DNA from: a virus
Taxonomy: Duplodnaviria > Heunggongvirae > Uroviricota > Caudoviricetes
Strand: one strand, 5' to 3'
Virus record (IMG/VR): IMGVR_UViG_2690316068_000004
Span: 1-38,076 of that record
Length of the DNA stretch: 38,076 bases
Numbering within the stretch: position 1 is the first letter of the stretch; each line of letters starts with the position of its first letter. Below, piece after piece: positions 1-28,854 of this stretch. A program made the translations under genes and the position numbers. The notes below the pieces were generated by a model that made no database searches, had not been told where the DNA came from, and saw only the letters and a program-made list of their open reading frames with translations.

Positions 1-858
1 ATGATGGCATTATTACTGGAGCCACTGCAGTTCACCTTTATAAGTCACGCACTGCTGATTTCACTGGTAGTTTCCATACCCTGTGCGCTGCTGTCGGTCT
101 TTCTGGTCCTGAAAGGTTGGGCACTGATGGGTGACGCGATGAGTCATGCGGTTTTTCCTGGCATCGTGCTTGCCTGGATTCTGGGGTTACCTTTGGCTAC
201 AGGGGCATTCGTCGCCGGAGTATTCTGCGCGGTGGCGACGGGATACCTGAAAGACAACAGCCGAATCAAGCAAGATACAGTGATGGGGATTGTTTTTTCT
301 GGCATGTTTGCCGCAGGTCTGATCTTGTATATTGCAGTCAAACCAGACGTACATCTTGACCATATTCTTTTCGGCGACATGCTCGGGATAACCATCGGCG
401 ATATAATCCAGACGGTGATTATTGCTGGGCTGGTTACACTTGTTATTAGCGTAAAATGGCGAGATTTTTTGCTGTTCAGCTTTGATTATCAACAGGCGCA
501 GGTAAGCGGTTTGCATACGAGATGGCTGCATTATGGGCTGCTGTGCATGGTCTCTCTGACCATTGTGGCGACGCTGAAAGCGGTAGGTATCATTCTCTCC
601 ATTTCTCTGCTCATTGCGCCTGGCGCCATTGCGGTACTCCTGACACAACGCTTTTATATTGCGCTCCTACTGGCGACTGGCATATCGGTAATAGTGTCAA
701 TGACCGGTGTCTGGCTGTCCTTTTTTATCGACAGCGCACCAGCTCCGACGATTGTCGTCTTATTCGCGGTCGCGTTCATCATGACGTTTACCGTTACCAG
801 CATCAACGCACGCACAAAGGGAAACGCCCATACACAGGATCTGTTATCACCCAATTAG
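1..858 (+). CDS. sitD: ABC-3 family metal (Mn/Fe) transporter permease, SitD/MntB-like; ORF begins at window edge so the true start may lie upstream
   Basis: 285-aa polytopic hydrophobic ORF whose sequence I recognise as SitD/MntB-type permease; ends at 858, convergent with the prophage tail fibre gene. Confidence 0.65.
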   Translation: MMALLLEPLQFTFISHALLISLVVSIPCALLSVFLVLKGWALMGDAMSHAVFPGIVLAWILGLPLATGAFVAGVFCAVATGYLKDNSRIKQDTVMGIVFSGMFAAGLILYIAVKPDVHLDHILFGDMLGITIGDIIQTVIIAGLVTLVISVKWRDFLLFSFDYQQAQVSGLHTRWLHYGLLCMVSLTIVATLKAVGIILSISLLIAPGAIAVLLTQRFYIALLLATGISVIVSMTGVWLSFFIDSAPAPTIVVLFAVAFIMTFTVTSINARTKGNAHTQDLLSPN

Positions 859-20373: not shown

Positions 20374-24054
<3,681 letters not shown>

Positions 24055-24080
<26 letters not shown>

Positions 24081-26358: not shown

Positions 26359-26652
26359 ATGAAAAAAATGTTGTTTTCTGCCGCTCTGGCAATGCTTATT
26401 ACAGGATGTGCTCAACAGACGTTTACTGTTGGAAACAAACCTACAGCAGTAACACCAAAGGAAACCATCACCCATCATTTCTTCGTTTCGGGAATTGGGC
26501 AGAAGAAAACTGTCGATGCAGCAAAAATTTGTGGTGGTGCAGAAAATGTTGTTAAAACAGAAACCCAGCAAACATTCGTAAATGGATTGCTCGGTTTTAT
26601 TACTTTAGGCATTTATACTCCGCTGGAAGCGCGTGTGTATTGCTCACAATAA
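26359..26652 (+). CDS. bor: Bor lipoprotein (serum-resistance moron)
   Basis: MKKMLFSAALAMLITGCAQQTFTV... matches lambda Bor; opposite strand to the lysis genes as in lambda. Confidence 0.9.
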   Translation: MKKMLFSAALAMLITGCAQQTFTVGNKPTAVTPKETITHHFFVSGIGQKKTVDAAKICGGAENVVKTETQQTFVNGLLGFITLGIYTPLEARVYCSQ

Positions 26653-26683: not shown

Positions 26684-27145
26684 CTATCTGCACTGCTCAT
26701 TAATATACTTCTGGGTTCCTTCCAGTTGTTTTTGCATAGTGATCAGCCTCTCTCTGAGGGTGAAATAATCCCGTTCAGCGGTGTCTGCCAGTCGGGGGGA
26801 GGCTGCATTATCCACGCCGGAGGCGGTGGTGGCTTCACGCACTGACTGACAGACTGCTTTGATGTGCAACCGACGACGACCAGCGGCAACATCATCACGT
26901 AGAGCATCATTTTCAGCTTTCGCATCAGCTAACTCCTTCGTGTATTTTGCATCGAGCGCAGCAACATCACGCTGACGCATCTGCATGTCAGTAATTGCCG
27001 CGTTCGCCAGCTTCAGTTCTCTGGCATTTTTGTCGCGCTGGGCTTTGTAGGTAATGGCGTTATCACGATAATGATTAACAGCCCATGACATGCAGACGAT
27101 GATGCAGATGAGCAGAGCGGAGATAATCGCGGCTACTCTTCTCAC
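26684..27145 (-). CDS. Rz: Inner-membrane spanin Rz, GTG start
   Basis: (V)[44 protein letters not shown]... matches lambda Rz; GTG at 27143..27145 preceded by GGGGGA. Confidence 0.85.
26743..26925 (-). CDS. Rz1: Outer-membrane lipoprotein spanin Rz1, embedded in Rz in the +1 frame
   Basis: 60 aa [24 protein letters not shown]...[15 protein letters not shown], lipobox and proline-rich as in lambda Rz1. Confidence 0.85.
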
Positions 27146-27676
27146 TGATCTATCCCCCAACAGGCTAAATGCGCTTTCCTGGTCACGACGAATAACCTGT
27201 CCGTAGCAGTTATTTGAACGTGTGCGGCAATCACGCCCACCGTCCTTAATCCACCAGCGAATCGACTCACAGGCACCTTTACGATCACCGGCATTAAGCC
27301 GCTTATAAAACGTCGACGGGAAACACTTACCGGGGCCAATGTTATAGGGACAAAATGACGCGATACCTGCTTTTTGTGGCTCGGTCAGTGGAACTTTTAT
27401 ATTACGCTCCACCCATGCCAGCGCCTTATCCCGCTCAATGGCGTTAACCTGGGCGCATTTTTCCTTCGACAGTTTCATGCCCGGAATAACAGGTTTACCC
27501 TCCACCACAGTGGCACCCCGGCAAATGGTCCATATGCCGGAACCATCGCGGTATGCCGTTGTGTGGTTACCCTCTTTTTCGTCCAGAAACTGGTCAAGTA
27601 TCTGAGGAGCAGACGCGCCTGCGGCAATCAGCGCCAGAACAGCAGCCGACAGGCCGTATCTGATTTTTACGTTCAT
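27142..27676 (-). pseudogene. R: Phage lysozyme (GH24-type, signal-anchor N-terminus), apparently frameshifted near the 3' end so the ORF reads through into Rz
   Basis: The 330-aa ORF is lysozyme (aa 1-177) plus Rz (aa 178-330) with no stop; the expected C-terminus ...ACWGIDQ and TGA at 27142..27144 lie in the +1 frame; the span is 535 nt, one more than 178 codons. Confidence 0.7.
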
Positions 27677-27810: not shown

Positions 27811-28050
27811 ATGCAAAAAGAAGTTTTTATCAATATTACAGCTGACTGCTCATCTCCTGCATCAACAGCAAAAGAAATTGAAGCTCTTAAATATATGATT
27901 ACAGTAATATTTTCCGTATTGGACCAGAATGAAAAAAATGGAATCATTCATCAATTAAATGAACATGTAAATAATCCATATATCAAAAGCAATCTGGAAA
28001 TGCTGCTACCAATGAAAGATATTGGAAAACCAACTGAAACAAAAGGCTAA
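27811..28050 (+). CDS. Hypothetical 79-aa protein, AT-rich moron inside the lysis cassette on the opposite strand
   Basis: ORF with GAGGA RBS 8 nt upstream of the ATG; AT-rich; no recognised homology. Confidence 0.5.
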   Translation: MQKEVFINITADCSSPASTAKEIEALKYMITVIFSVLDQNEKNGIIHQLNEHVNNPYIKSNLEMLLPMKDIGKPTETKG

Positions 28051-28361
28051 CAACCAGTAATTGAGTTATCTGAACTGTTAATTTTTATGGTATACCGCGC
28101 CTCTGAACAGGGGCGCGTTTCTGGCAACAGCTCGTCCCCTTCACATAACCCGGCAGCAACATCCAGGAAGACCTGTCTGATGCTCCTTCTGGCTGCAGCC
28201 TCATAAAACTCCAGCGCGGCACCTTCAACACGGTCCAGCGAGATGTCCAGGTCAAAAATTTCACCGTCAAAGCGTTTTTTGTCCCGTAATGCTAAAGTTA
28301 CCGTAACTTTATTCTCAAAATTGCGGATTCCTTTCACAATCATTTCATAGTATTGGGCCAT
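28047..28361 (-). CDS. Hypothetical 104-aa protein between holin and lysozyme (possibly YdfR/DUF1327-like; family unverified)
   Basis: Same strand as the lysis genes; starts 5 nt after the holin stop. Confidence 0.55.
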   Translation of the reverse strand: MAQYYEMIVKGIRNFENKVTVTLALRDKKRFDGEIFDLDISLDRVEGAALEFYEAAARRSIRQVFLDVAAGLCEGDELLPETRPCSEARYTIKINSSDNSITGC

Positions 28362-28365
28362 TATA

Positions 28366-28581
28366 TTACTCTCCTCTCGCAGCCTTTCTTCTGTCTTCTC
28401 TGATTTTGAAGTACAGATTTGTCAGATAAGTCAAAAAGCCCAGAACTAGACTTCCCAGCACACCAATTGCAGCCCACTGTGACGGACTGACCTGATCCAA
28501 CCACTGTAAAAACCAGTATCCCGCACTACCAGCGGATGTTCCGTAGGCAATGCCAGTTGAGATTTTGTCCATTGATTTCAT
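28366..28581 (-). CDS. S: Holin/antiholin, phage 21 S21 (pinholin) type with dual-start motif MKSMDK
   Basis: 71 aa [30 protein letters not shown]... with two TM segments; matches S21 as recalled. Confidence 0.85.
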
Positions 28582-28698
28582 AGCAACGCCTCCGCCAGTA
28601 ACGGATTGCGTAGTTCTTATATTGGGAATGGGAAAAAGAAGGCCGCAGCATAACTATCACTGATTAGTTCAGGATAGCCAGTGACTACGGCTAAGTTA

Positions 28699-28774
28699 TG
28701 GTGCTGGTTAACGGACTTGAACCGCCACCCATTCGCTTACAAGGCGACTGCTCTACCATTGGAGCTAAACCAGC
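28699..28774 (-). tRNA. tRNA, predicted anticodon UGU (Thr) from hand folding
   Basis: 76 nt folding as a cloverleaf with GCTC/GAGC D-stem, anticodon loop CTTGTAA, T-loop TTCAAGT, encoded CCA; C at position 14 and a G.A pair at the top of the anticodon stem. Confidence 0.6.
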
Positions 28775-28779
28775 ATGTT

Positions 28780-28854
28780 TGGCGGGACAGCGTGGACTCG
28801 AACCACGATAAGAAGGTTAACAGCCTTCCGTAATGACCTTTATACGACTGACCC
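28780..28854 (-). tRNA. tRNA-Asn (anticodon GUU)
   Basis: 75 nt with anticodon arm GAAGG-CTGTTAA-CCTTC, T-arm CGTGG-TTCGAGT-CCACG, encoded CCA; one T.T mismatch in the acceptor stem. Confidence 0.65.

Follow-up and report, generated by a model that had tools for sequence, protein, structure and literature searches.

The 330-aa open reading frame (ORF) in which the lysozyme of an E. coli prophage runs on into the spanin subunit Rz results from a genuine but ordinary frameshift of a lysis gene, private to one lineage, and is not a new kind of protein. The window, i.e., the whole stretch of 38,076 nucleotides that was analysed, most probably carries a real, vertically inherited 1-nt insertion in codon 170 of the ORF, which is predicted to have damaged or disabled the lysis cassette and to represent an early stage of prophage decay.

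The ORF consists of a phage-21-type SAR lysozyme that reads through into a complete Rz i-spanin (Table 1). In a Pfam comparison Phage_lysozyme (PF00959) is placed at aa 33–167, with a match of 1.2e-23 that extends over profile positions 2–125 of 125, and Rz (PF03245) at aa 206–330, with a match of 1.8e-53. A preliminary description of this DNA had proposed that a lysozyme and a full Rz are joined in a single 330-aa minus-strand ORF, and this is borne out by the ORF reading as well as by Pfam. The coordinates and arithmetic given there were also correct throughout: the span 27142..27676 is 535 nt, or 178 codons and one additional nucleotide, and the +1 frame holds ...LACWGIDQ followed by a TGA (27142..27144) that overlaps the Rz GTG. 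The minus strand around the site reads ...GAA AGC GCA TTT AGC CTG TTG GGG GAT AGA TCA GTG AGA AGA.... When one T is deleted in silico the result is a 177-aa lysozyme (its last 11 residues not shown here), and its TGA then overlaps the Rz GTG as GTGA, which is the arrangement annotated in strains SK1144 and 1105.

Table 1. Features of the lysis region and other sites discussed, in window coordinates.
Feature	Position	Strand	Remarks
Fused 330-aa ORF	26684..27676	-	aa 1–169 wild-type SAR lysozyme; aa 170–177 (FSLLGDRS) frameshifted; aa 178–330 complete Rz
Unaltered lysozyme part, codons 1–169	27170..27676	-	SAR-like segment at aa ~8–26; E35-x8-D44-x5-T50 triad
Run with extra base	27167..27169	-	TTT on coding strand, AAA on plus strand; relatives TT/AA; codon 170 (Phe) of fused ORF
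Displaced original lysozyme end, out of frame	27142..27168	-	LACWGIDQ and TGA
Rz (i-spanin) CDS	26684..27145	-	own GTG (27143..27145); length 153 aa; N-terminal TMD (aa 181–200 of the fusion) strongly hydrophobic
Shine-Dalgarno-like GGGGGA	27153..27158	-	8 nt upstream of Rz GTG; identical in L002 and L003; untouched by the mutation
Rz1 (o-spanin lipoprotein)	26743..26925	-	embedded in +1 frame of Rz; intact; PF06085, 3e-20; lipobox LVVVGC
Phage-21-type class II holin (pinholin family)	28366..28581	-	71 aa, intact; PF04971, 8.6e-36; annotation in strain Q5
DUF1327/YdfR-family gene	28047..28361	-	between holin and lysozyme; Pfam and annotation of relatives
79-aa ORF	27811..28050	+	between DUF1327 gene and lysozyme gene
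iss/bor serum-survival lipoprotein gene	26359..26652	+	immediately downstream of Rz; 100% identical to the strain 1105 copy
tRNA-Thr(TGT) and tRNA-Asn(GTT)	28699..28774 and 28780..28854	-	between Q antiterminator gene and holin
Amber codon TAG for CAG, codon 558 of 641 of large terminase gene A (22155..24080)	22407..22409	-	in a subset of frameshift carriers only

The three closest complete genomes (Q5, SK1144 and 1105) all read GCA-TTAGCC at the site, which is one T fewer than in the window. Q5 is 99.95% identical to the window over 4.2 kb and differs from it in two places in total. One is the extra base, which is the sole difference in the lysozyme gene. The second concerns a G run in Rz (G6 at window 26794, G5 in Q5), where Q5 is the aberrant sequence and its Rz is annotated as frameshifted. 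The preliminary description had attributed the read-through to one extra base at 27167..27169 (aa to aaa), and both the alignment to Q5, SK1144 and 1105 and the in silico deletion support this cause. The alignment to intact homologues that it had proposed as a check showed this single extra base relative to them. A run-length difference was also observed in STEC1585 (L004), where T8 is found versus T7 in the tape-measure gene at the equivalent of window 14135; the gene is annotated as frameshifted in RefSeq.

The allele with the extra base is rare and recent. An 81-nt sequence carrying it was not found at ≥99% identity at any of 1,585 places (1,318 records) in 5,426 complete RefSeq E. coli genomes; the places all show a one-base gap. 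The prophage itself is present in none of the complete RefSeq E. coli genomes at ≥99.9% identity. Similarly, the mutant 28-mer had no match in GTDB species representatives, JGI metagenome contigs or IMG/VR, while the wild-type 27-mer is present on at least 120 IMG/VR contigs. Since no match was obtained among the E. coli places, nor in these three collections, the extra base is specific and a common length polymorphism can be rejected.

It is nevertheless not confined to the window. By exact-sequence look-up the same 330-aa protein is encoded on eight contigs from independent assemblies, among them GCA_902708375.2, GCA_964204225.1 and the Logan assembly of SRR18030364. The DNA of these three is 99.97–99.995% identical to the window over 11–21 kb and identical to it at 27167..27169, and two more contigs (ERR13499507 and SRR2724133) match it at 100% identity over 21.7 and 16.2 kb. 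The extra base is shared by at least four slightly different genotypes: one carrier has a 3-bp deletion (L006), one the terminase substitution P127S (L007), and the window and two others (L008 and L009) a terminase amber codon. As the carriers thus differ among themselves by a SNP, a 3-bp deletion or an amber codon they represent distinct genomes, and the extra base is real and inherited within a small E. coli lineage.

The 3-bp deletion, in GCA_964204225.1, precedes the holin start codon by about 30 nt and is equivalent to window 28612..28614. P127S, in SRR18030364, is a change of CCT to TCT equivalent to window 23702. Both substitutions in the carrier clade are non-synonymous and fall in the terminase, and the intergenic deletion is the sole other change.

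The predicted effect of the insertion is best seen from the lysozyme. The change from TT to TTT on the coding strand turns the 177-aa lysozyme into a 330-aa lysozyme-Rz chimera, in which the last eight lysozyme residues, LACWGIDQ, including Cys172, are replaced by FSLLGDRS and the read-through. The part upstream has the E-x8-D-x5-T triad as defined in PMC9239132; E35, D44 and T50 were read from the sequence, and E35 and D44 are invariant in the homologue alignment. It also has an N-terminal Ala/Gly-rich segment (16 residues, not shown) with a 19-aa mean hydropathy of 1.2–1.8, which identifies it as SAR-like by composition only. Intact copies that are 96–97% identical are annotated as lysozyme or rrrQ in many E. 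coli genomes. Homologues from E. coli, Citrobacter, Salmonella and Morganella, some with as little as 60% identity, still end in CWG(I/L)DQ, whereas the window allele does not have this family-typical terminus followed by a stop. Homologous lysozymes naturally devoid of the CWGIDQ end would have spoken against a frameshift, as pointed out in the preliminary description; none was found down to that identity, and the proposed cause therefore stands. Judged by these features the window lysozyme is a mutated, not an intact, member of the SAR endolysin type (phage 21 R, GH24 true lysozyme).

SAR endolysins are exported by Sec, are inactive while the SAR segment holds them on the inner membrane, and become active once released (PMC6139136; PMC9239132); the membrane-tethered form is catalytically inactive (PMC9239132; PMC6139136). 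In the chimera the TMD of Rz would follow the periplasmic lysozyme domain and should act as a stop-transfer sequence that tethers the lysozyme permanently. This second anchor is strongly hydrophobic, with a hydropathy of up to 2.64 compared to at most 1.8 for the SAR-like segment, and would not be releasable in the way a SAR domain is. The coiled-coil domain of Rz would end up in the cytoplasm, away from Rz1. With the conserved terminus lost, the lysozyme permanently tethered and Rz on the wrong side of the membrane, a lysis defect in the carriers is likely. Against such a defect it can be held that only eight lysozyme residues are changed and that the Pfam catalytic domain at aa 33–167 is untouched.

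The consequences for Rz may be less severe than previously suggested. The preliminary description stated that Rz loses independent initiation, which goes too far as the GTG and the GGGGGA run are unchanged. Both are present but now lie inside the lysozyme reading frame, and it is possible that internal initiation still gives free Rz. The loss concerns the end of lysozyme translation, which no longer falls at the Rz start, so that any coupling of termination to reinitiation is gone as well.

A second inactivating lesion, an amber codon that cuts the large terminase short, is found within the carrier clade and is likewise real. The amber allele of the large terminase gene occurs on three contigs, and both of those retrieved (L008 and L009, which come from two other read sets) carry the fusion; the third is listed only as a similar place. 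The amber codon is absent from L005, L006 and L007, and the other five frameshift carriers of the eight have an intact 641-aa terminase. In the simplest account the frameshift came first and the terminase nonsense mutation later, within one clone, although parsimony over this handful of genomes is only suggestive of that order. The lesions are restricted to a lineage and the close relatives are intact, as in a decaying prophage, and a frameshift with an amber codon nested within its distribution fits a prophage that is no longer selected to make and release virions. Where the amber codon is lacking, in five carrier contigs, all further phage genes examined are intact; there the prophage may still be largely functional and the frameshift tolerated.

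It is unlikely, although it deserves some consideration, that the fusion is tolerated or even useful. The chimera would then be made and the cassette would still bring about lysis, with a lysozyme that bears the C-terminal change and Rz supplied by internal initiation, or alternatively the host keeps an allele that blunts lysis while immunity and iss/bor are preserved. The intact catalytic domain and the retained GTG and GGGGGA run of Rz agree with this, as do the intact Rz1, holin and all other genes in most carriers. The allele has also persisted through some diversification, but the diversity is tiny so that persistence says little on selection. Further, the conserved CWG terminus is gone, a permanent and strong TMD now follows a domain that needs freedom in the periplasm (PMC9239132), there is no conserved family of such fusions, and a terminase nonsense mutation followed within the clade. 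Much less probable still is that selection on the host lineage, and not chance, has retained the chimera as a stable inner-membrane protein with two anchors and an effect on lysis behaviour, e.g., one that prevents the endolysin from being released and so grounds the prophage, with immunity, sieB and iss/bor still available to the host. Were the chimera indeed stable and lysis-blocking it would provide a convenient natural tool for SAR endolysin release, but nothing in the present analysis points that way.

A sequencing or assembly artefact, i.e., a miscounted short homopolymer in a gene that is truly intact, is highly improbable. The difference is indeed a change in run length, and the nearest complete genome, Q5, itself has an error-like run-length change in Rz (G5 vs G6). 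However, a run going from two to three is an untypical site for such errors, and the same TTT is found in at least five retrieved contigs that stem from independent assemblies and read sets and differ elsewhere by SNPs and indels. Moreover, 42 other phage genes of the window align in a single frame to proteins of strain 1105, full-length or within 1–5 residues, so that homopolymer errors are not a general problem of this assembly. A frameshift-ridden assembly was rejected on the same grounds, the sole other lesion in the window being a substitution, the terminase amber codon. The preliminary description had spoken of an apparent insertion and recommended resequencing; the insertion has held, and the doubt about sequencing is effectively ruled out by independent assemblies and read sets with the same run length.

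The least probable reading is that ribosomes are programmed to shift by +1 at UUU-A and thereby make a lysozyme of normal length (...ESAFACWGIDQ) from the mutant mRNA. It would profit from the fact that a +1 slip of tRNA-Phe from UUU to UUA re-enters the original frame 8 codons before the TGA. It is rejected as the site has no known slippery motif (it matches by eye neither prfB CUU UGA C, Ty1 CUU AGG C nor Ty3 GCG AGU U), the codon in the A site, AGC, is a common one with no stop or rare codon next, and the allele is absent from all homologues and hence not a conserved recoding site. Transcriptional slippage was also rejected, as it would take a run longer than three T.

Why the frameshift, here read as a random and inherited insertion, resulted in a fusion rather than a truncation is easily explained. 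Ahead of its GTG, Rz has an open frame of no more than 36 nt, so that a +1 insertion in lysozyme codons ~165–177 reads into Rz while one further upstream meets a stop. The fusion is therefore the expected outcome of a random insertion in a 36-nt target. In a homology search two-domain lysozyme and Rz proteins were singletons, with one contig each, whereas clusters of intact lysozymes (177–182 aa) contain hundreds to thousands of members, up to 1,376, and a conserved endolysin-spanin fusion family was rejected on this basis. Two other fusions in the 90% cluster of the window protein each arose from a different 1-nt insertion a few bases off, CAGGAA to CAGGGAA in P0002 and GCA to GCAA in P0005. 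The spanin survey of PMC6139136 distinguishes embedded, overlapped, separated and unimolecular architectures, and a term search of it found no endolysin-spanin fusion.

Three further observations were made among the proteins collected. First, P0015 is a 354-aa E. coli protein with a lysozyme domain and DUF2514, encoded on a 4.77-Mb contig, and may be another endolysin read-through into a downstream lysis gene, in a different type of cassette. Second, a 182-aa lysozyme labelled as belonging to the Qin prophage (P0102) loses all similarity to the family beyond about aa 125. It is apparently the product of a frameshifted gene copy and shows how often this lysozyme gene is disrupted in cryptic prophages. 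Third, the Rz-containing proteins P0026, P0027 and P0124 are 88–97% identical to the window Rz but are labelled as fungal (Neocucurbitaria sp., Fusarium sp.) or as Bacillus/Priestia megaterium; the assemblies concerned appear to be contaminated with lambda or E. coli DNA.

The fused ORF belongs to a lambda/phage-21-like prophage whose start adjoins sitD in E. coli. The window begins with chromosomal sitD (1..858), followed by about 37 kb of lambda-like prophage on the minus strand with the gene order tail, head, terminase, lysis cassette, Q, nin region, O/P, immunity region and sieB. The window Rz aligns over 153 of 153 aa to RzpD of strain 1105 with 97% identity, and the Rz/Rz1 pair is of the embedded kind, with PF03245 after an N-terminal TMD and an Rz1 lipoprotein in the +1 frame. 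The 79-aa ORF overlaps the end of the DUF1327 gene by 4 nt and has no Pfam match; it is 100% conserved in strain 1105, where it is annotated only as a hypothetical protein (WP_001168526.1). The iss/bor gene is a moron, and would still serve the host even if the prophage cannot lyse. The tRNA-Thr/tRNA-Asn pair is also found in strain Q5, but strain 1105 has an ompC-like porin gene in its place, indicating a mosaic junction.

For annotation it follows that 26684..27676 should be described as a frameshifted or disrupted lysozyme and an Rz/Rz1 pair, and not as a new fusion protein. Beyond annotation the significance is small. The locus offers a clean, datable case of what would be the first steps of prophage decay, a frameshift in a lysis gene and then a terminase nonsense mutation, and it makes clear why this endolysin gene yields fusions and not truncations when an indel falls within its last dozen codons.

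Compared to known systems, the lysozyme part is closest to R21 (3HDE, 3HDF) and RrrD (4ZPU), the nearest solved relatives by sequence. It shares with these and with RrrQ the PF00959 domain, the E-x8-D-x5-T motif, the weakly hydrophobic N-terminal Ala/Gly segment, and a gene that lies downstream of a class II holin of the phage-21 type. In contrast to all of them, the window allele is without the C-terminal LACWGIDQ and stop, and runs on into 153 aa of Rz. The spanin part resembles the embedded spanins Rz/Rz1 of lambda and RzpD/RzoD of E. coli prophages, which also have an N-terminal TMD in Rz and Rz1 in the +1 frame. In wild-type relatives of the window the endolysin gene overlaps Rz in a 4-nt stop/start, whereas in the window the Rz start lies inside a longer ORF and ribosomes translating the lysozyme do not terminate there. 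Other sporadic lysozyme-Rz read-throughs (P0002, P0005 and P0007) also have both domains in one ORF, but arose by different insertions in different backbones and are found on a single contig each, and P0002 additionally carries a second frameshift, into the Rz1 frame. Finally, frameshifted or truncated lysis genes of cryptic E. coli prophages, such as P0102 (a Qin-type variant of RrrQ) and the gene for the lysis protein in strain Q5, share with the window a single-base indel that disrupts one gene of a recognisable cassette; in the window this indel fell inside the 36-nt stretch, and a fusion was formed in place of a truncation.
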